A stretch of 64,000 nt of DNA. Source: Escherichia coli (GTDB lineage Bacteria; Pseudomonadota; Gammaproteobacteria; Enterobacterales; Enterobacteriaceae). Both the position numbers and the translations under genes were made by a program. How positions within the stretch are numbered: position 1 is the stretch's first letter; every line of letters begins with the position of its first letter. The stretch lies in the NCBI RefSeq assembly GCF_011045215.1, contig NZ_CP049201.1; one strand, 5' to 3'. Under the pieces are notes generated by a model that did no database searches, was not told where the DNA came from, and worked only from the letters and a program-made list of their open reading frames with translations. Positions 44,386 through 55,675 of this stretch are shown here, in pieces.

Positions 44386-44882
44386 TGTCGCCATCATTAC
44401 GCAAGGCTGTTGCTGCTGCTATTGGTGGTGGGGCTGTTGCCATAGCGTCTGTGCTCATCACTGGTCCGAGTGGTGACGATGGCCTGGAAGGTGTCAGCTA
44501 CATACCATACAAAGATATCGTTGGCGTATGGACTGTATGTCACGGACACACCGGAAAAGACATCATGCTAGGTAAAACGTATACCGAAGCAGAATGCAAA
44601 GCCCTCCTGAATAAAGACCTTGCCACGGTCGCCAGACAAATTAACCCGTACATCAAAGTCGATATACCGGAAACAACGCGCGGCGCTCTTTACTCGTTCG
44701 TCTACAACGTGGGTGCTGGCAATTTCAGAACATCGACGCTTCTTCGCAAAATAAACCAGGGCGATATCAAAGGCGCATGTGACCAGCTACGTCGCTGGAC
44801 ATACGCTGGCGGTAAGCAATGGAAAGGCCTGATGACTCGTCGTGAGATTGAGCGTGAAGTCTGTTTGTGGGGGCAACAATGA
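44385..44882 (+). CDS. phage lysozyme (T4 lysozyme/GH24 family) with N-terminal signal-anchor
   Basis: 165 aa; hydrophobic N-terminus ([18 protein letters not shown]) then lysozyme core with catalytic E-D-T spacing; ATG overlaps holin stop. Confidence 0.88.
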
Positions 44883-45346
44883 GCAGAGTAACCGCGATTA
44901 TCTCCGCTCTGGTTATCTGCATCATCGTCTGCCTGTCGTGGGCGGTCAATCATTACCGTGATAACGCCATCGCCTACAAAGAACAGCGAGATAAAAAAGT
45001 CAGTGAGCTGAAGCAGGCGACCGCCACCATCGCTGACATGCAGCAGCGTCAGCGTGATGTTGCTGCGATCGATGCAAAATACACGAAGGAGTTAGCCGAT
45101 GCGAAAACTGAAAATGAAACTCTGCGCGCTGATGTTGCCGCTGGTCGTAAGCGCCTGCGGGTCAATGCCAGTTGCTCCGCAGCCGTGCGTGAAGCCACCG
45201 GACCCACCAGCATGGATAATGCAACCAGCCCCCGACTGGCAGACACCGCTGAACGGGATTATTTCATCCTCAGAGAACGGTTGATGACGATGCAGAAGCA
45301 ACTGGAAGGGGCGCAGGAATATATCCGCACCCAGCGCATTAAGTAG
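44879..45346 (+). CDS. Rz: i-spanin Rz
   Basis: 155 aa with N-terminal TM and coiled-coil periplasmic domain; overlaps lysozyme stop. Confidence 0.85.
45099..45284 (+). CDS. Rz1: o-spanin Rz1 lipoprotein, embedded in Rz
   Basis: 61 aa in +1 frame inside Rz; lipobox LVVSAC; proline-rich. Confidence 0.8.
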
Positions 45347-45730: not shown

Positions 45731-46184
45731 GTAACAGCAGGCATTACAGCAGCCCTTCACTGAGGGGCTGCGATAATGTGAGGAATAAAAAACCGGCAGG
45801 GGAAATCCATTGAAGATTTGCCGGTGGCAAAAGATGGCCATGCTTTTAACCTTAGTAGCAGAGTTACGGAGTTCAACAACGACCGTCGCCGTTATCTTGC
45901 TGAAAGGCGTTTCAATGATTTTCATCAATTTATTCATCAGCAATGGTGATAATCACTCTCATTTTGGCGGGTCCTTCCGGTGGGGTGGCCTGCCACGGGG
46001 CGGGAGCGTCGCGGAAAAAGGCTAGTTTTTGAAATTTCATTCGTCATCACCACCACTGTAATAGATTGATATTACAGTGGTTTTATTTTTATGGTGTCGA
46101 TTTTGATTGTTTTTTTGTTCACCACTAACACCGTTTGCCTAAAGTTGTTCGCAAGATGCATGTTTAAAACATTCTGGAGCGGGT

Positions 46185-46679
46185 ATGGATCGAGAGTTAA
46201 AAAATCTGACGCTGAATATCAGTCAACTGGCGGCACTGTCAGGTGTACATCGCCAGACTGCTGCGGCAAGGCTGCAAAATCTACCCGTTGCAGGGGGGCA
46301 TGAAAGCAACCTCAAGCTTTATCGGGTGGTTGATATTGTGTCGGCATTTCTGGCATTGCCACCGCCGGTTGCAGAAGGCGAAATGGACGCGCATGAGCGC
46401 AAAGCCTGGTATCAGTCTGAACGTGAGCGTCTTAAGTTCGAACAGGAAACGGCACAACTCATTCCGGCCAGTGATGTCAGACGGGAGTTTGCCATCTGGG
46501 CAAAAGCGGTCGTGCAGGTGCTGGAGACATTACCGGATATTCTGGAACGTGACTGCGGTCTGCAGCCTGCCGCTGTGAGCCGTGTTCAGTCCATTATTGA
46601 TGATCTGCGCGATCAGATAGCCCTGCGGGTGACTGAAGCAGGTGCGGATGATGAGGAGGAATTACAGCAGGAGGAGTAA
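46185..46679 (+). CDS. terminase small subunit
   Basis: 164 aa with N-terminal HTH-like segment (LNISQLAALSGVHRQTAAARL) and acidic C-terminus; directly precedes large terminase. Confidence 0.8.
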   Translation: MDRELKNLTLNISQLAALSGVHRQTAAARLQNLPVAGGHESNLKLYRVVDIVSAFLALPPPVAEGEMDAHERKAWYQSERERLKFEQETAQLIPASDVRREFAIWAKAVVQVLETLPDILERDCGLQPAAVSRVQSIIDDLRDQIALRVTEAGADDEEELQQEE

Positions 46680-48781
46680 TGCTGAATCAGGAAACCGCAA
46701 AGGCAGCACGAACCGATTCAGGTTATATCCTTCGCGCACCGAGACGAATGCGGGTTGCTGATGCCGTTGCTCAGTATATGCGGGTGCCCATGGGGGCAGG
46801 GAACTCAGTCCCGTGGGATCCGCTGGTGGCACCGTATGTTATTGAGCCGATGAACTGCCTGGCCTCGCGTGAATACGACGCAGTGATATTTGTTGGCCCG
46901 GCACGAACCGGCAAGACTATCGGCCTGATTGACGGCTGGGTGATTTACAACGTGATTTGCGATCCTGCTGATATGCTGATCATTCAGATGACGGAGGAAA
47001 AAGCCCGCGAACACTCCAAAAAACGACTCGCCAGAACGTTTCGCGTCAGCCCGGAAGTGGTCAGTCGCCTGAGTCCGAACAAAAATGACAACAACGTTTA
47101 TGACAGAACATTCCTTGCTGGTAACTACCTGAAAATCGGCTGGCCGTCAGTCAATATCATGTCCTCATCAGATTATAAATGCGTCGCGCTGACGGATTAT
47201 GACCGTTTTCCGGAAGATATTGATGGCGAGGGGGATGCTTTCTCTCTTGCCTCAAAACGTACCACCACATTTATGTCCAGCGGTATGACGCTGGTGGAGA
47301 GTTCCCCCGGCAGGGATGTGAAGGATGTGAAATGGCGACGGACTTCACCGCATGAGGCTCCACCAACCACGGGGATCCTGTCGCTCTATAACCGTGGTGA
47401 TCGCCGTCGCTGGTACTGGCCCTGTCCACACTGTGGTGAGTATTTTCAGCCCTGCGGCGATGTGGTTGCTGGTTTCCGTGATATTGCCGATCCCGTGCTG
47501 GCAAGTGAGGCGGCTTATATTCAGTGTCCTTCCTGTTCAGGACGGATTATGCCTGAACAAAAACGTGAGCTGAACGGACGTGGGGTCTGGTTGCGGGATG
47601 GTGAATCCATCAATGCGGATGGCAGTCGTTATGGTGATCCCCGACGCTCACGTATTGCGTCATTCTGGATGGAGGGTCCGGCAGCTGCTTACCAGACACT
47701 CTCGCAACTCGTTTACAAACTGCTTACTGCAGAACAGGAATACGAGACAACCGGAAGTGAAGAAACACTCAAGACGGTTATCAATACCGACTGGGGATTA
47801 CCTTATCTTCCCCGCGCCAGCATGGAGCAACGAAAAAGTGAACTGCTTGAGCAGCGGGCAGAGCCAGTTCCTTCCCGCAGTGTGCCGGATGGCGTTAATT
47901 TCCTTGTGGCGACAGTGGATGTGCAGGCGGGACGTCATCGCCGTTTTGTGGTTCAGGTAACGGGCTATGGCAGCCGTGGCGAACGCTGGATTATTGATCG
48001 TTACAACATCACGCAGTCATTGCGCGGTGACAGCGACGGGGAGAGCCAGCGAATTGATCCGGCCAGCTATCCGGAAGACTGGGATGTCCTGCTGACGGAT
48101 GTTTTTCATAAAAGCTGGCCGCTGGCCTCCGATCCTTCTCAACAAATGCGACTGATGGCAATGGCGGTGGACTCCGGCGGTGAAGACGGGGTCACTGATA
48201 ATGCCTATAAATTCTGGCGTCGTTGCCGTCGTGATGGCCTTGGTAAACGTATTTACCTGTTTAAGGGCGACAGCATCCGGCGCGCAAAACTGATCACCCG
48301 TACATTCCCTGATAACACCGGACGAACGGGCCGACGGGCGCAGGCCGCAGGTGATGTGCCGCTCTGGCTTCTTCAGACGGATGCACTGAAAGACCGGGTG
48401 AATAACGCGTTATGGCGTGACTCGCCAGGTCCCGGCTATGTGCATTTCCCTGACTGGCTGGGGAGCTGGTTTTACGACGAACTGACGTATGAAGAGCGGA
48501 GCAGTGACGGGAAATGGAGTAAGCCGGGTCGCGGTGCCAACGAAGCTTTTGACCTGATGGTGTATGCCGAGGCTCTGGTCATTCTGCATGGATACGAAAA
48601 GATCCGCTGGCCGGATGCACCGGAGTGGGCGAGCCGGGAAACCTGGCTGGAGTGTGTCCCGGACAGTACCGAACCGTCATCCTCACCGGAACCGGTATCC
48701 ACGCCTGTTAAAAAACAAAAACGGAAGAAAACAGTAACTGACGATGTTAACCCCTGGCTGACTTCCGGAGGATGGTTATGA
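46679..48781 (+). CDS. terminase large subunit (lambda gpA family)
   Basis: 700 aa; Walker A-like VGPARTGKT; ATG overlaps small-subunit stop. Confidence 0.9.
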   Translation: MLNQETAKAARTDSGYILRAPRRMRVADAVAQYMRVPMGAGNSVPWDPLVAPYVIEPMNCLASREYDAVIFVGPARTGKTIGLIDGWVIYNVICDPADMLIIQMTEEKAREHSKKRLARTFRVSPEVVSRLSPNKNDNNVYDRTFLAGNYLKIGWPSVNIMSSSDYKCVALTDYDRFPEDIDGEGDAFSLASKRTTTFMSSGMTLVESSPGRDVKDVKWRRTSPHEAPPTTGILSLYNRGDRRRWYWPCPHCGEYFQPCGDVVAGFRDIADPVLASEAAYIQCPSCSGRIMPEQKRELNGRGVWLRDGESINADGSRYGDPRRSRIASFWMEGPAAAYQTLSQLVYKLLTAEQEYETTGSEETLKTVINTDWGLPYLPRASMEQRKSELLEQRAEPVPSRSVPDGVNFLVATVDVQAGRHRRFVVQVTGYGSRGERWIIDRYNITQSLRGDSDGESQRIDPASYPEDWDVLLTDVFHKSWPLASDPSQQMRLMAMAVDSGGEDGVTDNAYKFWRRCRRDGLGKRIYLFKGDSIRRAKLITRTFPDNTGRTGRRAQAAGDVPLWLLQTDALKDRVNNALWRDSPGPGYVHFPDWLGSWFYDELTYEERSSDGKWSKPGRGANEAFDLMVYAEALVILHGYEKIRWPDAPEWASRETWLECVPDSTEPSSSPEPVSTPVKKQKRKKTVTDDVNPWLTSGGWL

Positions 48782-48990
48782 ACCAGAATGATATCGAAGC
48801 CATGATTCAGCGTTATACGGAAGCTGAAATGGCGGTGCTGGACGGAAAATCCGTCACCTTTAATGGTCAGCAGATGACCATGGAAAACTTATCTGAGATC
48901 CGGCAGGGACGGCAGGAGTGGGAGCGCCGCCTTGCGGCTCTGATTACACGACGACGGGGGCATCCCGGGTATCGGCTGGCGAGGTTCTGA
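48772..48990 (+). CDS. W: head-tail joining protein, gpW-like
   Basis: 72 aa with gpW-type pattern and C-terminal RRRGHPG. Confidence 0.75.
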   Translation: MVMNQNDIEAMIQRYTEAEMAVLDGKSVTFNGQQMTMENLSEIRQGRQEWERRLAALITRRRGHPGYRLARF

Positions 48991-50498
48991 TGGCAATTCT
49001 TGATGATGTGATTGGCGTTTTTTCACCAGGATGGAAAGCGGCAAGGCTGCGTTCCCGTGCGGTGATCCAGGCTTATGAGGCCGTAAAAACGACGCGGACA
49101 CACAAAGCCCGACGGGAGAACCGAACTGCCGACCAGTTAAGCCAGTACGGGGCCGTGTCGTTACGTGAGCAGGCCCGTTACCTTGATAACAACCACGATC
49201 TGGTTATTGGTGTATTTGACAAGCTGGAAGAACGGGTGGTGGGGAAAAACGGGATTATTGTCGAGCCACATCCGGTATTACGCAATGGGGCCATTGCCCG
49301 TGACCTGGCTGCGGAGATTCGCACCCGATGGAGTGAATGGTCTGTCAGCCCGGAAGTCACCGGGCAGTTTACCCGTCCGATGCTGGAACGTCTGATGCTT
49401 CGTACCTGGCTGCGCGATGGTGAGGTGTTTGCCCAGATGGTTTCCGGGCGCATAAACAGCCTGACGCCTTCTGCCGGTGTTCATTTCTGGCTGGAGGCGC
49501 TCGAGCCGGACTTTATTCCCATGACCAGTGATGAGAGCAACAGGCTGAATCAGGGCGTGTTTGTTGATGACTGGGGGCGTCCCGAAAAATATCTGGTGTA
49601 TAAAAGCCGTCCCGTATCCGGACGGCAGATGGAAACCAAAGAAGTGGATGCAGAGCGAATGCTGCATCTTAAATTTGTTCGCCGTCTGCACCAGATGCGC
49701 GGGACGTCTTTATTGTCCGGTGTGCTGATCCGCCTCAGTGCCCTGAAAGAGTATGAAGATTCTGAGCTGACTGCAGCAAGGATCGCCGCCGCTCTGGGGA
49801 TGTACATCCGGAAAGGCGACGGGCAGAGCTATGAAGCGGATGGTAATGGCAGCAAGGATAAGGAACGCGAGCTTACCATTCAGCCAGGCATTATTTACGA
49901 TGATCTGAAACCCGGCGAAGAAATCGGAATGGTGAAGTCGGATCGCCCAAATCCTAACCTTGAAACTTTTCGTAATGGTCAGTTGCGTGCCGTGGCGGCG
50001 GGCAGTCGTCTGAGTTTTTCCAGTACAGCGCGCAACTATAACGGCACTTACAGCGCCCAGCGTCAGGAGCTGGTTGAATCCACTGATGGCTACCTGATCC
50101 TGCAGGACTGGTTTATTGGTGCCGTCACCCGTCCGATGTATCGTGCCTGGCTGAAACAGGCTGTGGCATCCGGTGTTATCAGGCTACCCCGCGATCTTGA
50201 CCTTTCTTCACTGTATACCGCGGTGTATTCCGGACCGGTGATGCCGTGGATTGACCCTGTTAAGGAGGCTGAGGCCTGGAAAATCCAGATTCGTGGTGGA
50301 GCGGCGACAGAATCAGACTGGGTACGTGCTGGTGGTCGTAATCCGGATGATGTCAAACGTCGGCGCAAGGCCGAAATTGATGAAAACCGCAAGCTGGATC
50401 TGGTATTTGATACCGATCCGGCCAGTGATAAAGGAGGCAGCAGTGCCGCAACGAAACGACAGGAGCCGCAGCACACCGACGACCAGTCCGAAGAATAA
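48990..50498 (+). CDS. portal protein (lambda gpB family)
   Basis: 502 aa from ATG overlapping W stop (TGATG); position after terminase and W. Confidence 0.85.
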   Translation: MAILDDVIGVFSPGWKAARLRSRAVIQAYEAVKTTRTHKARRENRTADQLSQYGAVSLREQARYLDNNHDLVIGVFDKLEERVVGKNGIIVEPHPVLRNGAIARDLAAEIRTRWSEWSVSPEVTGQFTRPMLERLMLRTWLRDGEVFAQMVSGRINSLTPSAGVHFWLEALEPDFIPMTSDESNRLNQGVFVDDWGRPEKYLVYKSRPVSGRQMETKEVDAERMLHLKFVRRLHQMRGTSLLSGVLIRLSALKEYEDSELTAARIAAALGMYIRKGDGQSYEADGNGSKDKERELTIQPGIIYDDLKPGEEIGMVKSDRPNPNLETFRNGQLRAVAAGSRLSFSSTARNYNGTYSAQRQELVESTDGYLILQDWFIGAVTRPMYRAWLKQAVASGVIRLPRDLDLSSLYTAVYSGPVMPWIDPVKEAEAWKIQIRGGAATESDWVRAGGRNPDDVKRRRKAEIDENRKLDLVFDTDPASDKGGSSAATKRQEPQHTDDQSEE

Positions 50499-50511
50499 TT
50501 CCTGGTTCAGG

Positions 50512-52470
50512 ATGCAGGCTGGTCACCAGAGTGACGCGGATATTTATATTTATGACGAGATTGGTTTCTGGGGTGTTACAGCGAAGCAGTTTATCAGTGA
50601 TCTGAATGCACTGGGCGATATCACCCATATTAATCTCCATATTAATTCACCGGGTGGCGATGTCTTTGAAGGCATCGCCATTTTTAATGCACTGAAAACA
50701 CATGGTGCGTCCATTACCGTTTATGTCGACGGTGTGGCGGCGTCAATGGCGTCGGTCATTGCGATGGTGGGAAACCCGGTCATTATGCCGGAAAACACCT
50801 TCATGATGATTCATAAACCATTTGGCTTTACGGGCGGTGATGCGGAGGACATGCGCACCTATGCCGACCTGCTCGATAAAGTTGAGGCGGTTCTGTTACC
50901 CGCTTATGCACAGAAAACCGGGAAAACCACCGATGAAATTGCTGCCATGCTGGCGGATGAGACCTGGATGTCCGGTGCCGAATGTCTGGCACATGGATTT
51001 GCTGATCAGGTAACGCCAGCCGTTAAGGCAATGGCATGTATTCAGTCAAAACGTACAGAGGAATTTAAAAAGATGCCGGAATCCATTCGAAACATGATTA
51101 CTCCGCCACGCAACAGTGCTCCACGCGTACAGGATAATGAACCTGAAGCCTCCCGGACGCCAGTGCAGGCAGCAGCACCCGTGGTGGATGAAAACAGCAT
51201 CCGTGCGCAGGTACTGGCAGAGCAAAAAGCGCGTGTAAACGGTATTAATGATCTGTTTGCCATGTTTGGCGGGCGTTATCAGACGCTGCAGGCTCAGTGT
51301 CTTGCCGATCCTGAATGTTCGCTGGAGCAGGCCCGCGAAAAGCTGTTGAACGAGATGGGGCGCGAGTCCACGCCATCCAATAAAAATACCCCGGCTCATA
51401 TTTATGCCGGTAACGGTAATTTTGTGGGGGACGGGATCCGCCAGGCGCTGATGGCGCGTGCCGGATTTGAAAAAACCGAACGTGATAATGTCTACAACGG
51501 GATGACCCTGCGTGAATATGCCCGTATGTCACTGACTGAACGGGGTATTGGGGTTTCCAGTTATAACCCGATGCAGATGGTCGGTGCGGCGTTCACACAC
51601 AGTACGTCTGACTTCGGTAATATTCTGCTGGATGTTGCGAACAAAGCCATTCTGCAGGGCTGGGAAGATGCCCCTGAAACCTATGAACAGTGGACGCGGA
51701 AAGGTCAGTTGTCTGATTTTAAAATTGCCCATCGTGTGGGTATGGGGGGCTTCAGTGCTCTGCGTCAGGTGCGTGAAGGGGCGGAATATAAATACGTCAC
51801 CACCGGAGATAAACAGGCCACTATTGCACTGGCGACCTATGGCGAGCTGTTCAGTATCACCCGTCAGGCCATTATCAATGATGATCTGAATATGCTGACC
51901 GATGTCCCGATGAAACTGGGCCGTGCGGCGAAATCCACTATTGCCGATCTGGTTTATGCCATTCTGACGTCTAACCCGAAAATCTCCACAGATAATGTAA
52001 GTCTGTTCGATAAAGCGAAACATGCAAACGTACTGGAGAGCGCTGCAATGGACGTGGCATCGCTGGATAAAGCCCGCCAGTTGATGCGCGTTCAGAAAGA
52101 GGGGGAGCGTCATCTGAATATTCGTCCTGCGTTCGTACTGGTACCGACGGCGATGGAGTCTGTTGCTAACCAGGTCATTCGCTCCTCAAGTGTCAAGGGG
52201 GCTGACATTAACGCCGGTATTATTAACCCGGTGAAAGATTTTGCGACCGTTATTGCAGAGCCTCGTCTTGATGATAACAGCCAGACCACCTTCTACCTGG
52301 CTGCGTCAAAAGGCTCCGATACGATTGAAGTGGCTTATCTCAACGGTGTGGATACGCCATATATTGATCAGATGGAGGGCTTCAGTGTGGATGGCGTGAC
52401 AACGAAAGTGCGTATTGACGCCGGTGTCGCGCCAGTTGATCACCGCGGTCTGGTGAAATGTACGGCGTAA
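50512..52470 (+). CDS. prohead protease (ClpP/S14-like) fused to major capsid protein
   Basis: 652 aa; N-terminal ClpP-like region (NSPGGDVFEGIAIFNAL...GVAASMASVIAM) and C-terminal capsid-like domain; upstream in-frame extension overlaps portal and is rejected. Confidence 0.8.
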   Translation: MQAGHQSDADIYIYDEIGFWGVTAKQFISDLNALGDITHINLHINSPGGDVFEGIAIFNALKTHGASITVYVDGVAASMASVIAMVGNPVIMPENTFMMIHKPFGFTGGDAEDMRTYADLLDKVEAVLLPAYAQKTGKTTDEIAAMLADETWMSGAECLAHGFADQVTPAVKAMACIQSKRTEEFKKMPESIRNMITPPRNSAPRVQDNEPEASRTPVQAAAPVVDENSIRAQVLAEQKARVNGINDLFAMFGGRYQTLQAQCLADPECSLEQAREKLLNEMGRESTPSNKNTPAHIYAGNGNFVGDGIRQALMARAGFEKTERDNVYNGMTLREYARMSLTERGIGVSSYNPMQMVGAAFTHSTSDFGNILLDVANKAILQGWEDAPETYEQWTRKGQLSDFKIAHRVGMGGFSALRQVREGAEYKYVTTGDKQATIALATYGELFSITRQAIINDDLNMLTDVPMKLGRAAKSTIADLVYAILTSNPKISTDNVSLFDKAKHANVLESAAMDVASLDKARQLMRVQKEGERHLNIRPAFVLVPTAMESVANQVIRSSSVKGADINAGIINPVKDFATVIAEPRLDDNSQTTFYLAASKGSDTIEVAYLNGVDTPYIDQMEGFSVDGVTTKVRIDAGVAPVDHRGLVKCTA

Positions 52471-52493
52471 ACGTCGCAGACAACAACTCTGAT

Positions 52494-52513
52494 GGCCCGT
52501 AAGGGCTTTTTTT
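52494..52513 (+). terminator. terminator-like hairpin after capsid gene
   Basis: short stem gccc/gggc with 7-T run. Confidence 0.5.
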
Positions 52514-52556
52514 GTACCTGAAATCAGCCCCTGAACGGGGCTGTGCGGAGACAGTT

Positions 52557-52880
52557 ATGGCAAAGAATTTTGTAGAAGAAGGAAAAACGGTGGCGATTGT
52601 TGCCAGTGCAGCCATCAGCAGCGGAGATCTGGTGCAGGTGGGTGATGTTTTTGCGGTGGCGCTGACCGATATTCCACAGGGTGAAACAGGCGACGGCATG
52701 ACCGAAGGTGTGTTTATCCTGCCTAAACTGAAAACGGATGACATGAAAACGGGTAAGAAGGTTTATCTGAAGTCCGGAAAAGTTCAGCTGACTAACAGCG
52801 GCTCTGATCCGCTGGTCGGGGTTGTCTGGGCAGATGCCGGAACCAGTGCAGAAGAAGTGCCGGTAAAACTCAATGTCTGA
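52557..52880 (+). CDS. small head structural/decoration-type protein
   Basis: 107 aa directly after the capsid gene. Confidence 0.6.
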   Translation: MAKNFVEEGKTVAIVASAAISSGDLVQVGDVFAVALTDIPQGETGDGMTEGVFILPKLKTDDMKTGKKVYLKSGKVQLTNSGSDPLVGVVWADAGTSAEEVPVKLNV

Positions 52881-53148
52881 TCCCTTTTCCCGGCTGGCAG
52901 CGCGTATGGATGCGATCACGGTCAGAAAGATGGGAAAGACAGCCTCGATTAATGATGTCGATATGACTGTGATCCCGGGAGAAACACTGGCAGAGCTGAA
53001 TGCTCTGTCCGGACCTGCGGTCTCTCTGGTGGTGTTTTCTTCGGGATACCGCCCACGGCGCGGGGATCGCGTTGTTTATGACGGACAACATTGGACGGTC
53101 ACACGGCATGAACGCTTTAACGGTAAGCCAATGATCTTTATTGAGTAA
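52873..53148 (+). CDS. head-tail connector protein (FII-like position)
   Basis: 91-aa ORF overlapping previous stop, immediately before Z. Confidence 0.6.
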   Translation: MSDPFSRLAARMDAITVRKMGKTASINDVDMTVIPGETLAELNALSGPAVSLVVFSSGYRPRRGDRVVYDGQHWTVTRHERFNGKPMIFIE

Positions 53149-53159
53149 AGAGGTGTGGG

Positions 53160-53738
53160 ATGAAGGGGCTTGAGAATGCCATCCGCAATCTGAACAGCCT
53201 TGATACCCGTATGGTGCCACAGGCCAGCGCATGGGCGATAAACCGTGTGGCACAGAAAGCGGTCTCGGTTGCCACCCGGCAGGTTGCCGGGAATACCGTT
53301 GCGGGAGATAACCAGGTGAAAGGGATACCCCTGAAACTGGTACGTCAGCGTGTCCGGGTGTTTAAAGCCAGTCCGTCAGGAAAAATGACGGCCAGGATCC
53401 GCGTTAACCGGGGCAATCTGCCTGCCATTAAGCTGGGGACCGCCCGGGTCAGACTGACCCGACGTGGTGGAAAACTGCAGTACCGTGGCAGCGTGCTGAA
53501 GGTGGGTAAATATCTTTTCCGGGATGCGTTTATTCAGCAACTGGCGAATGGTCGCTGGCATGTGATGCGGCGTATTGATGGCAAAAATCGTTACCCCATT
53601 GATGTGGTGAAAATCCCTCTGTCCGGACCGCTGACACAGGCATTTGAAGATGCCCGCGACCGCATCATTGCTGCGGAAATGCCGAAACAGCTGGGGTATG
53701 CACTGAAACAACAACTGAGGTTATGGCTGACCCGATGA
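53160..53738 (+). CDS. Z: tail completion protein Z
   Basis: 192 aa, same length and position as lambda gpZ. Confidence 0.8.
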   Translation: MKGLENAIRNLNSLDTRMVPQASAWAINRVAQKAVSVATRQVAGNTVAGDNQVKGIPLKLVRQRVRVFKASPSGKMTARIRVNRGNLPAIKLGTARVRLTRRGGKLQYRGSVLKVGKYLFRDAFIQQLANGRWHVMRRIDGKNRYPIDVVKIPLSGPLTQAFEDARDRIIAAEMPKQLGYALKQQLRLWLTR

Positions 53739-54910: not shown

Positions 54911-54934
54911 GCCCCGGTTATCCGGGGCTTTTTT
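54911..54934 (+). terminator. rho-independent terminator after V
   Basis: stem gccccgg/ccggggc, loop ttat, then tttttt. Confidence 0.7.
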
Positions 54935-54947
54935 GCAGGTGGAGAAC

Positions 54948-55337
54948 ATGATGTTTCTGAAACAGGGCACGTTTAATTATGAAAAGCAGTCCGTGGTGCT
55001 CAGTGAGCTGTCCGGGCTGCAGAGAATTGAATATCTGGCGTTTGTTCAGCAGCGAACGGCAAAGTTTGATGCCGAAGAGGGAGAACTGCCGGAGGCTGAA
55101 CGACAGATTGCTTTTCTGCGGATGGGGATGGATATCAATGCCTGGCTGGTTTCCCGCTCACTGTGGAATGCGGATCAGTCTAAGGATGTTGAGACGCTTT
55201 GCGCATCCGTTATTACAACATGGTCGTATGATGCCCTGGGAGCGGGGGCGGAGATGGTTCTGTCGCTGAGCGGTATGGGAGCCATTGAGAATGCCGGGGA
55301 TTTGGAGCATGAGGTGCTGACGCCGGAAAAGTCCTGA
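54948..55337 (+). CDS. G: tail assembly chaperone G
   Basis: 129 aa preceding the tape measure gene. Confidence 0.8.
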   Translation: MMFLKQGTFNYEKQSVVLSELSGLQRIEYLAFVQQRTAKFDAEEGELPEAERQIAFLRMGMDINAWLVSRSLWNADQSKDVETLCASVITTWSYDALGAGAEMVLSLSGMGAIENAGDLEHEVLTPEKS

Positions 55338-55345
55338 CGCGGGAA

Positions 55346-55675
55346 ATGCAGTTTGTCATGCGGCTTGCCCGGGAGTTCCGGCGGGCAGACTGGCGGCGGA
55401 TGCTGTCGGAAATGTCGGCCACTGAGCTTGGTGAGTGGGGCGATTATTTCCGGATGCAGAGCTTCAGTGATGTGTGGATGGATGCGCAGTTTGCCTCGCT
55501 GAAGGCATTGATCGTGAGAATGGTGTCCGGTAGCAGTGATGCTGCGGTGGCTGATTTCAGCCTTTTACCGGAAGAGAACGGGATACCGGAGCGAACGGAC
55601 GAAGAACTGATGCATCTTGGGGAAGGTATTTCCGGAGGTGTGCGTTATGGACCAGATAGCCAACCTGGTCATTGA
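55346..55675 (+). CDS. T: T segment of tail assembly chaperone GT (expressed by -1 frameshift from G)
   Basis: ORF in -1 frame relative to G, open upstream into the G 3' end around an A-rich slippery site (GGAAAAG, 55325-55331). Confidence 0.65.
   Translation: MQFVMRLAREFRRADWRRMLSEMSATELGEWGDYFRMQSFSDVWMDAQFASLKALIVRMVSGSSDAAVADFSLLPEENGIPERTDEELMHLGEGISGGVRYGPDSQPGH

Follow-up and report, generated by a model that had tools for sequence, protein, structure and literature searches.

A ClpP-like protease/major capsid protein fusion gene of the Gifsy-2 type in an Escherichia coli prophage, with a candidate nested internal start

The window analysed in this study is a 64,000-nucleotide stretch of contig NZ_CP049201.1 of Escherichia coli (assembly GCF_011045215.1). 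Directly after a portal gene and before a head decoration gene, it carries an open reading frame that encodes a ClpP-like protease and a capsid protein in one chain (Table 1). Inspection of this ORF confirmed that the frame is unbroken from the ATG at 50512 to the stop codon at 52468-52470 (652 codons), while its stop-to-stop frame begins at 50242. The encoded protein matched the NCBIfam model NF045540 (scaf_prot_MCP1) with a score of 986.1 bits (cutoff, 475) over profile positions 2-651 of 652, and PHROG 133 matched it end to end. The gene is thus a ClpP-like prohead protease/major capsid protein fusion of the Gifsy-2 type. It is very probably the head-shell gene of a lambdoid prophage of the Gifsy-2/mEp460 type, composed of a ClpP-like serine protease whose Ser-His-Asp triad is intact, a linker, a scaffold-like segment and a capsid domain of the HK97 fold; a four-part layout is also seen in the full-length AF2 model (pLDDT 87).

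Table 1. Features of the fusion gene and its surroundings (positions refer to the whole window).
Feature	Position	Strand	Remarks
Portal gene	48990-50498		Adjoins the fusion upstream
Shine-Dalgarno sequence AAAGGAGG of the probable true start	50430..50437	+	5-nt spacer to GTG 50443
Probable complete CDS of the ClpP-like protease-scaffold-major capsid protein chain	50443..52470	+	675 aa; GTG start, TAA stop
ClpP-like (S14) prohead protease domain	50509..51015	+	Residues 23-191 of the 675-aa product
ORF as delimited in the first-pass annotation	50512..52470	+	ATG start, 652 aa; frame confirmed
Catalytic Ser codon	50743..50745	+	Ser78 (652-aa) / Ser101 (675-aa numbering); aligns with the ClpP active-site Ser in AASM
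Catalytic His codon	50812..50814	+	His101 / His124; in MIHKP, aligned to ClpP MIHQP
Probable third triad residue	51004..51006	+	Asp165 / Asp188 in GFAD; aligns with ClpP Asp
Internal Shine-Dalgarno-like GAGGA	51058..51062	+	10 nt upstream of ATG 51073; duplex -6.0 kcal/mol
Putative nested in-frame gene, protease-less scaffold-capsid protein	51073..52470	+	465 aa; from comparative sequence
Disordered, hypervariable Pro/Ala/Gln-rich linker	51106..51177	+	Residues 222-245 of the 675-aa product; AF2 pLDDT <50
Helical scaffold-like (delta-domain-like) segment	51190..51462	+	Residues ~250-340
HK97-fold major capsid protein domain	51508..52467	+	Residues ~356-675
Terminator-like hairpin GGCCC-GTAA-GGGCT and T run	52494..52513	+	Consensus scan; putative function
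Second GC-rich hairpin CAGCCCC-TGAAC-GGGGCTG	52525..52543	+	RNA fold; just upstream of the ribosome-binding site of the decoration gene
Head decoration/cement protein gene	52557..52880	+	107 aa; PF09956 Phage_cement_2, 1.3e-20; PHROG 122 "head decoration", 1.4e-46

The first-pass annotation, made from the sequence alone, had described a single ORF with an S14/ClpP-like protease region in its N-terminal part and a capsid-like domain in its C-terminal part, followed by a terminator-like hairpin. All of this was borne out: domain searches of the two halves identified (i) a ClpP/S14 protease (Pfam CLP_protease, aa 23-168, E = 4.4e-36) and (ii) an HK97 capsid fold (Phage_capsid_4, aa 354-649, E = 2.1e-54) in one and the same chain, with scores well outside what chance would give, and the hairpin is present at 52494-52507, with the T run behind it.

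The protease domain matched NF045542 ("head maturation protease, ClpP-related") at 3e-64. It was modelled by AF2 with pLDDT values mostly above 90, and a Foldseek search with the full-length model recovered ClpP structures at target-normalised TM-scores of 0.77-0.82. Across 58 homologues spanning 33-69% identity the catalytic Ser and His are unchanged, and the triad Asp is kept in most, though not all, of the homologues aligned. This variation of the third triad residue would suit a catalytically dead domain acting only as a scaffold or internal cargo, with maturation left to a host protease or absent, but such a role is very improbable given that Ser and His never vary in the 58 sequences, that the predicted fold superposes on active ClpP and that the NCBIfam class of the domain is that of head maturation proteases.

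The linker that follows is unalignable among homologues and variable in length. The segment behind it is predicted to form four helices (pLDDT 84-96) with the conserved motif R..I..F...L...C..D, and its position, together with what is reported for Gifsy-2, suggests a role as a scaffold. The capsid fold was recognised by a profile search and by a separate structure model of the capsid half. The former matched the solved Mu-GpT-type capsids 8rkc/8rkx at 3.6e-11, and the latter, submitted to Foldseek, matched encapsulins and phage capsids including HK97 Head II with a probability of 1.0. A plain sequence search of the PDB with the fusion protein returned ClpP only and no capsid, and in a Foldseek search with the full-length model ClpP matches dominated, leaving the C-terminal half uninformative. 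The capsid domain was also matched, weakly, by the Pfam family of Mu-like gpT (3.7e-08).

Analysis of the distribution of the gene revealed that 2016 of 5426 complete E. coli genomes (~37%) carry it, that the ORF occurs at no less than 99% identity in more than 1,500 complete genomes, and that it is 99-100% identical in isolated phages, the gene occurring in Ayreon, mEp460 and cdtI. Over 100 protein clusters at 33-60% identity retain the full-length fusion architecture, a survey of Paracoccus prophages describes the same fusion of ClpP with a gpT-like protein, and in a sister family (NF045541-like) an S78 protease is fused to the same capsid type. The fusion belongs to a known, curated and experimentally studied family, and its arrangement is not unusual. 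Tailed phages admittedly have separate protease and capsid genes more often, ~1,600 phage records contain stand-alone ClpP-like proteases that align to aa 1-200 and one split variant exists, but a frameshift or sequencing error, for which the first-pass annotation had advised a check, or an assembly error joining two genes is refuted as the source of the fusion by the independently sequenced phages, the thousands of genomes and the clusters of full-length fusions down to 33% identity, as well as by the curated NCBIfam model covering exactly this fusion, and it can be dismissed as practically excluded.

Two further candidates were considered among the homologues. The 468-aa protein P0227 was rejected as a naturally split capsid gene, since it lies on a truncated contig and its frame is open upstream. 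Ralstonia phage YO122_2 was rejected as a case of a stand-alone capsid gene, since its protein is a 697-aa fusion; for the N-terminal part of the latter, no match to a Pfam protease family reached the threshold applied.

As for the beginning of the gene, the frame of the 652-aa ORF stands, but its start at ATG 50512 probably does not. The fusion product most likely comprises 675 aa and starts at GTG 50443, because (i) the sequence AAAGGAGG upstream of this in-frame codon forms a strong duplex with the anti-Shine-Dalgarno sequence (-11.6 kcal/mol), (ii) the RefSeq/PGAP model for an identical sequence begins there, and (iii) Gifsy-2, Pseudomonas phage CF145a and most of 56 distant homologues have conserved a Trp motif, NSWF, which is encoded 5' of 50512. 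Phage Eeyore has a Shine-Dalgarno sequence and a GTG arranged as at 50430-50443. Translation from ATG 50512 would make use of the commonest start codon, which sits 14 nt past the portal stop and so avoids any overlap of the genes (the 675-aa gene overlaps the 3' end of the portal gene by 56 nt), and a length of ~652 aa is annotated in several phage records. This shorter product is nevertheless unlikely: the ATG lacks a ribosome-binding site (Shine-Dalgarno duplex of only -2.2 kcal/mol), the residues encoded upstream of it are conserved as protein, and neither Gifsy-2 nor CF145a has a start codon at the aligned position.

Downstream of the fusion, the order of genes is the same as in Gifsy-2, whose corresponding decoration protein is 61% identical. 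The decoration gene is the functional counterpart of lambda D. Of the two hairpins in the intergenic region, the first keeps its GCCC/GGGC stem and T7 run in enteric relatives, with varying loops; the stems of the second vary in sequence among relatives and retain complementarity. The predicted RNA fold of the intergenic region is only modestly better than that of shuffled sequence (z = -1.85), and a search of Rfam detected no known RNA family within 50000-53200.

The relationship to lambda was examined across the head and tail modules. BLASTP of the fusion and decoration proteins against lambda C, Nu3, D and E detected no similarity, and the Pfam families found here are S14 CLP_protease, Phage_capsid_4 and Phage_cement_2, rather than those of separate lambda-type gpC (S49), gpE and gpD homologues. 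Upstream, the terminase matched GpA_ATPase (9e-72) and GpA_nuclease (1e-85), and the portal protein matched Phage_portal_2, the lambda family (5e-82); the large terminase subunit is 25% identical to lambda A and the portal protein 21% identical to lambda B. The tail proteins matched Minor_tail_Z, Phage_tail_U and Phage_TTP_12 and showed identities to their lambda counterparts of 50% (Z), 53% (U), 55% (V), 34% (G) and 25% (H), in the same order as in lambda. The terminase and portal are thus distant members of the lambda gpA and gpB families, and since the gene order also parallels that of lambda, the head module is a hybrid and not wholly non-lambda. The first-pass annotation had contrasted a lambda-type tail module with a head module of another type, and had placed the fusion in the position of lambda C, Nu3, D and E. 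The former view is correct for the tail (Z, U and V at 50-55%) and for the head shell, but not for the terminase and portal; the latter applies to C, Nu3 and E, but not to D, for which a separate decoration gene exists.

The closest studied system is Gifsy-2 with its "tripartite capsid gene" (STM1034.3n). The two fusion proteins are 70% identical over their full length, share the protease-linker-scaffold-capsid layout and are embedded in the same gene order (TerS-TerL-W-like-portal-fusion-decoration-FII-like-Z-U-V-G-T-H). The two do not differ in kind: the linkers vary in sequence and length, the N-termini are annotated differently (the Gifsy-2 record has 696 aa, against 675 aa here), and the E. 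coli gene represents the mEp460/cdtI/Ayreon-type allele. With HK97 the protein shares the capsid fold and an N-terminal scaffold-like segment fused to the capsid protein (the delta domain of gp5), presumably removed by the prohead protease. In HK97, however, the protease gp4 is encoded by a separate gene and belongs with the S78 (herpesvirus assemblin-like) proteases rather than with the ClpP-like ones, and the shell is a covalent chainmail with no decoration protein, whereas a cement gene is present here.

The locus resembles lambda in (i) its place behind the portal gene in the late operon, (ii) a protease of the broader ClpP/SppA-like group (S49 peptidase in the annotation of lambda C), (iii) a single reading frame for protease and scaffold, Nu3 being nested in C, (iv) a trimeric decoration protein and (v) the tail genes, which are true homologues. 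It differs in that the capsid protein shares the ORF with the protease and scaffold, that the decoration gene follows the capsid gene instead of preceding it and belongs to another family (PF09956), and that it lacks an FI homologue. The capsid domain and gpT of Mu are distant relatives. In Mu an in-frame scaffold start (Z) lies within the protease gene (I) and provides a model for the nested start proposed below; the capsid gene T of Mu is separate, whereas the fusion gene runs on from the protease into scaffold and capsid without a change of frame.

Comparison of the fusion genes revealed a conserved signal within the linker region. Upstream of the in-frame ATG 51073 lies a GAGGA motif whose duplex energy is comparable to those of the portal (-7.1 kcal/mol) and decoration (-6.6 kcal/mol) genes. 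In each of the 57 full-length fusion genes of the ClpP type, which represent 41 distinct contexts, a Shine-Dalgarno core precedes an in-frame ATG of the linker by 4-11 nt. This count overstates independence, since these genes are phylogenetically related; other in-frame ATG contexts of the same ORFs were preceded by such a core in 52 of 877 cases (5.9%). The residues encoded by the linker motif vary (EE, ED, QE, KE, GD, KD), while the nucleotide motif stays. Where Glu is encoded there, its codon is GAG (20 of 20 contexts), although the ORF as a whole contains 21 GAA and 16 GAG codons. Distant members of the family read MKK, MNK or MPK from the linker Met onward. In the S78-protease sister family the core and linker ATG were present in nine of ten genes, the remaining one (L079) having no clear Shine-Dalgarno sequence. 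In the split variant (L084) the separate capsid gene begins at the Met equivalent to ATG 51073; the genome that contains this variant is a draft, and the prophage may be in decay. An in-frame scaffold start inside the protease gene has been documented in Mu-like phages (PMC4378225).

From these sequence comparisons it appears somewhat probable that the fusion consists of two nested in-frame genes, the inner of which would be translated from the conserved internal ribosome-binding site and ATG 51073 to yield a protease-less scaffold-capsid protein. The internal signal is common to the whole family of ClpP-type fusions and to the S78-type sister family. No statement on a nested start of this fusion was found in the searchable literature, which does not include the primary Gifsy-2 paper, and the feature may already have been noted.

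The other reading, that only a single polyprotein is made, each capsid subunit being a full chain and the internal signal being either the relic of an ancestral, once separate capsid gene or a motif that acts in the protein, for instance in docking or cleavage, is a serious possibility, though we judge it to fall short of probable. The Shine-Dalgarno sequence of the upstream GTG is far stronger than the internal one (-11.6 vs -6.0 kcal/mol), and by a rough estimate a T=7 procapsid could hold ~415 copies of the ~37 kDa N-terminal part. In the subgroup that contains this gene, the 10-nt spacer is long and the internal Shine-Dalgarno sequence only moderate, which counts against a nested start. 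The string R-x-E-E-F-x-x-M-P is conserved as amino acids in the enteric subgroup and could be a signal at the level of the protein. Against a single polyprotein, the ATG and core were retained in every ClpP-type fusion gene although the linker is otherwise hypervariable and disordered, they persist at 31-43% identity, where surrounding residues are unrelated and unalignable, and also in the S78-type sister family, and the constant choice of GAG suggests that the nucleotide sequence itself is under selection; a relic, moreover, would be expected to decay.

Work on Gifsy-2 and the biology of HK97, lambda and Mu suggest how the fusion product might be used. The capsid domains would assemble on the portal into a T=7 procapsid, with the N-terminal parts facing its interior, and the scaffold-like segment would act in the manner of the HK97 delta domain or lambda Nu3. 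With a nested start, the protease would be present on only some of the subunits, an arrangement known from lambda C/Nu3 and Mu I/Z. The tethered protease would then excise itself together with the scaffold segment, so that a mature capsid protein of ~300-330 residues remains; the 2010 study of Gifsy-2 by Effantin and colleagues (Virology 402:355) reportedly described how autoproteolysis frees the mature capsid protein as the head matures. The shell would expand upon DNA packaging and might be stabilised by trimers of the downstream decoration protein.

The names given to the fusion gene in public records are inconsistent and include "Clp protease ClpP", "ATP-dependent Clp protease proteolytic subunit", "head-tail preconnector protein Nu3", "head-tail preconnector protease C", "putative protease/scaffold protein" and "Major head protein", and automated surveys can therefore miss the capsid protein. 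A study of capsid architecture failed to recover an HK97-fold capsid protein for Gifsy-2 (PMC8814770). The main value of the present analysis lies in annotation: recognition of a protease-scaffold-capsid unit, together with its likely true start and a probable internal one, allows the gene to be modelled correctly in a type of prophage found in ~37% of complete E. coli genomes. The nested start, if true, would explain how the fused protease is dosed per procapsid, and would extend the arrangement of lambda C/Nu3 and Mu I/Z to a third type of phage head.

The stop-free frame surrounding the prophage head gene runs from position 50242 to the TAA at 52468-52470, and translation from the ATG at 50512 gives, without interruption, the 652-aa product proposed in the first-pass annotation as a fusion of a prohead protease and a major capsid protein. 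Within this single polypeptide (652-aa numbering), Pfam searches identified CLP_protease (aa 23-168, E 4.4e-36) and Phage_capsid_4 (aa 354-649, E 2.1e-54), as well as a weak match to Mu-like gpT. The protein is covered end to end by PHROG 133 and scored 986 bits against the NCBIfam model NF045540 (scaf_prot_MCP1; cutoff 475).

Isolated phages (e.g. Ayreon, mEp460, cdtI, phi458 and Tritos) carry the 1959 nt of the ORF at 99-100% identity; in Stx2 phages the identity is about 77%. Of 5426 complete E. coli genomes, 2016 contain the gene over 80% or more of its length, and its RefSeq name in them is [quoted passage not shown]. Among 1.8 billion cluster representatives, well over 100 full-length fusions were found (about 640-700 aa, 36-60% identity), 56 of which could be aligned with the window protein from one terminus to the other. 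A frameshift or sequencing error, for which the first-pass annotation had proposed a check, or an assembly artefact is ruled out by the near-identical phage copies, the 2016 genomes and the more than 100 distant full-length fusions. The gene is an unremarkable representative of a known and very common family. The fusion of Salmonella phage Gifsy-2 is the studied example; Effantin et al. are said to have described a T=7 shell, with HK97 gp5 and lambda gpD used for modelling, and to have suspected a scaffolding role for a central domain of ~200 residues. Among Paracoccus siphovirus prophages, one in three has a ClpP and gpT-like fusion of the same kind (PMC6536676). Four database entries (P0005, P0033, P0061, P0081) combine the fusion with domains of the terminase, portal or tail and reach lengths of up to 1135 aa; these are probably gene-calling or assembly artefacts of draft genomes, which could mislead surveys of domain architecture.

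An AlphaFold2 model of the fusion protein, built on 58 sequences (mean pLDDT 87), resolved the segments listed in the table. The protease-domain model superposes on solved ClpP structures (target TM-score 0.77-0.82). Ser101 (AASM motif) and His124 (MIHKP) match the ClpP active site and are invariant across the 58-sequence alignment, and the Asp of GFAD is conserved in most, but not all, of these sequences. When residues 211-675 were modelled on their own (pLDDT 82), the model matched HK97-fold shells, both encapsulins and phage capsids (phiXacJX1, FCWL1, phiCD508, SU10 and HK97 Head II; probability 1.0, E-values about 1e-8 to 1e-9), and the sequence profile matched the solved Mu-GpT-type capsid proteins 8rkc/8rkx (3.6e-11). 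Since a capsid fold was found in the C-terminal half, next to a ClpP-like N-terminal half, the original interpretation stands.

Features of the head and tail modules (window coordinates) and of the fusion protein (residues, 675-aa numbering, AlphaFold2)
Feature	Position	Remarks
TerS-like gene		first in head-module order
gpA-family large terminase	46679-48781	after TerS-like gene
Small W-position gene		between large terminase and portal
Lambda-family portal	48990-50498	directly before fusion
Candidate internal start	ATG 51073	Met188 of 652-aa ORF; SD-like GAGGA at 51058-51062
Terminator-like hairpin	52494-52507	GGCCC-GTAA-GGGCT + T run; 24 nt past fusion stop
Second GC-rich hairpin	52525-52543	just before ribosome-binding site of decoration gene
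Cement/decoration gene	52557-52880	107 aa; PF09956, PHROG 122; after fusion
FII/Gifsy-2-family gene	52873-53148	after decoration gene
Tail genes Z, U, V, G, T, H		in this order after FII/Gifsy-2-family gene
Strong terminator-like hairpin	54911-54928	GCCCCGG-TTAT-CCGGGGC + T6; directly after major tail gene V
Disordered N-terminus	residues 1-17	
ClpP-like domain	residues 23-191	
Short linker	residues 192-221	two small helices
Disordered stretch	residues 222-245	pLDDT <50
Four-helix segment	residues about 250-340	
Alpha/beta domain	residues about 356-675	

The start codon had to be revised. Shine-Dalgarno (SD) pairing at ATG 50512 is essentially nil (-2.2 kcal/mol), whereas the in-frame GTG at 50443, at which the PGAP gene model begins, is preceded by AAAGGAGG at a spacing of 5 nt (-11.6 kcal/mol). 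Between the two codons the frame encodes a peptide ending in NSWF, and most homologues match W-[YF]-x-[IM] with a Trp at this position, a few residues past the N-terminal Met. ATG 50512 has no aligned start codon in Gifsy-2 or in Pseudomonas phage CF145a. The SD strength, the conserved upstream Trp and the PGAP choice indicate that the product most probably comprises 675 aa; with the start at GTG 50443, the gene would overlap the last 56 nt of the portal gene.

Past the protease domain, the linker is hypervariable among homologues, both in sequence and in length (46-102 residues), and nearly all of them retain one linker Met, preceded by E-E, E-G or K-E. DNA analysis of 76 viral loci together with the window, Gifsy-2, Eeyore and CF145a revealed an SD core (GAGGA, AGGAG, GGAG or AAGG) 4-11 nt upstream of an in-frame linker ATG in all 57 full-length ClpP-type fusions, which are phylogenetically related loci (41 distinct contexts), compared with 52 of 877 other in-frame ATG contexts of the same ORFs (5.9%). 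The residues encoded by the SD site vary (EE, ED, QE, KE, GD, KD) while the nucleotide motif stays, and its Glu codon is GAG in 20/20 contexts (whole ORF: 21 GAA, 16 GAG). In distant members the sequence past the linker Met resembles a true N-terminus (MKKF, MNKN, MKQK). The SD duplex at ATG 51073 (-6.0 kcal/mol) is comparable to those of the portal (-7.1) and decoration (-6.6) genes.

A sister family carries the Phage_capsid_4 capsid and scaffold on an HK97-type Peptidase_S78 instead of ClpP. Nine of the 10 genes examined (from L004, 3329-5422; L063; L073-L081) contain an SD and in-frame ATG in the linker, and the SDs are often strong; the Ralstonia ORF in L004 shares the capsid domain, but none of the Pfam protease families matched its N-terminal part. 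In one draft genome (GCA_000755365.1; locus L084, 1857-3832) a TAG closes the ClpP-like gene, and 38 nt further a separate capsid gene of 443 aa begins exactly at the conserved linker Met (RIKDFHN-M-P, AAGGA upstream); this split could reflect either an ancestral-like arrangement or the decay of the prophage. In lambda, an in-frame nested scaffold start is annotated in the protease gene (C/Nu3), and such starts are documented in Mu-like phages (PMC4378225). On the strength of the SD and ATG conservation, GAG bias, N-terminus-like sequences, sister family, split locus and these precedents, we lean slightly towards a second, protease-less scaffold-capsid protein of 465 aa, which would also be made from ATG 51073. 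Against this, the SD-ATG spacer in the window's subgroup is long, and there the surrounding motif is also conserved as protein.

The head and tail gene order is identical to that of Gifsy-2, whose fusion and decoration proteins are 70% and 61% identical to those of the window. The view of a non-lambda head combined with a lambda tail holds for the shell genes. BLASTP found no similarity of the fusion and decoration proteins to lambda C, Nu3, D and E, and the tail proteins are clear lambda homologues (Z 50%, U 53%, V 55%, G 34%, H 25%); however, the terminase and portal are also of lambda families, though distant (25% and 21%), and the lambda gene order is kept. Nor are all of C, Nu3, D and E replaced by one ORF, as the D-equivalent decoration gene remains separate. 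At the G/T-like tail chaperone pair (55323-55346), the T-like ORF (55346-55675) is shifted by -1 against the frame of the G-like ORF, which ends at 55337; the junction reads CCGGAAAAGTCCTGA, with GGAAAAG in place of the GGGAAAG of lambda.

The terminator-like hairpin noticed earlier after the fusion ORF was found. Among enteric relatives its GCCC/GGGC stem and T7 run are kept and the loops vary; in the second hairpin the stems change sequence with complementarity preserved. The hairpin after V mirrors that after the capsid gene, and these structures are more plausibly partial terminators or mRNA-stability elements following the two most abundant structural genes of a Q-antiterminated late operon.

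Two further loci deserve mention. A GC-rich stretch upstream of the small terminase gene (45975-46030; ...CCGGTGGGGTGG.CTGCCACGGGGCGGGAGCG.CGCGGAAAAAGGCT.GTTTTTG) may be cos-related. Four viral contigs (L031, L043, L044, L046) have it too, directly downstream of the capsid fusion gene; because decoration and tail genes seem to be missing there, these elements may be satellite-like. In the lysis cassette, the Rz-like ORF (44867-45346) encloses, in another frame, an ORF of 61 aa (45099-45284) whose product has a lipoprotein-type signal; the two look like an Rz/Rz1 nested pair.

The domain content, intact catalytic residues, HK97 fold and partner decoration gene are established here. Homology with Gifsy-2, HK97 and lambda suggests that the capsid domains form a procapsid around the N-terminal parts and that the helical segment acts as a scaffold like the delta domain or Nu3. 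The tethered protease would then cut off itself and the scaffold, after which the shell would expand and be cemented by the decoration protein. The fusion is confirmed and its interpretation supported, the arrangement being already known; the useful outcomes are the corrected start codon, a clearer comparison of the modules with lambda, and the nested-start hypothesis.
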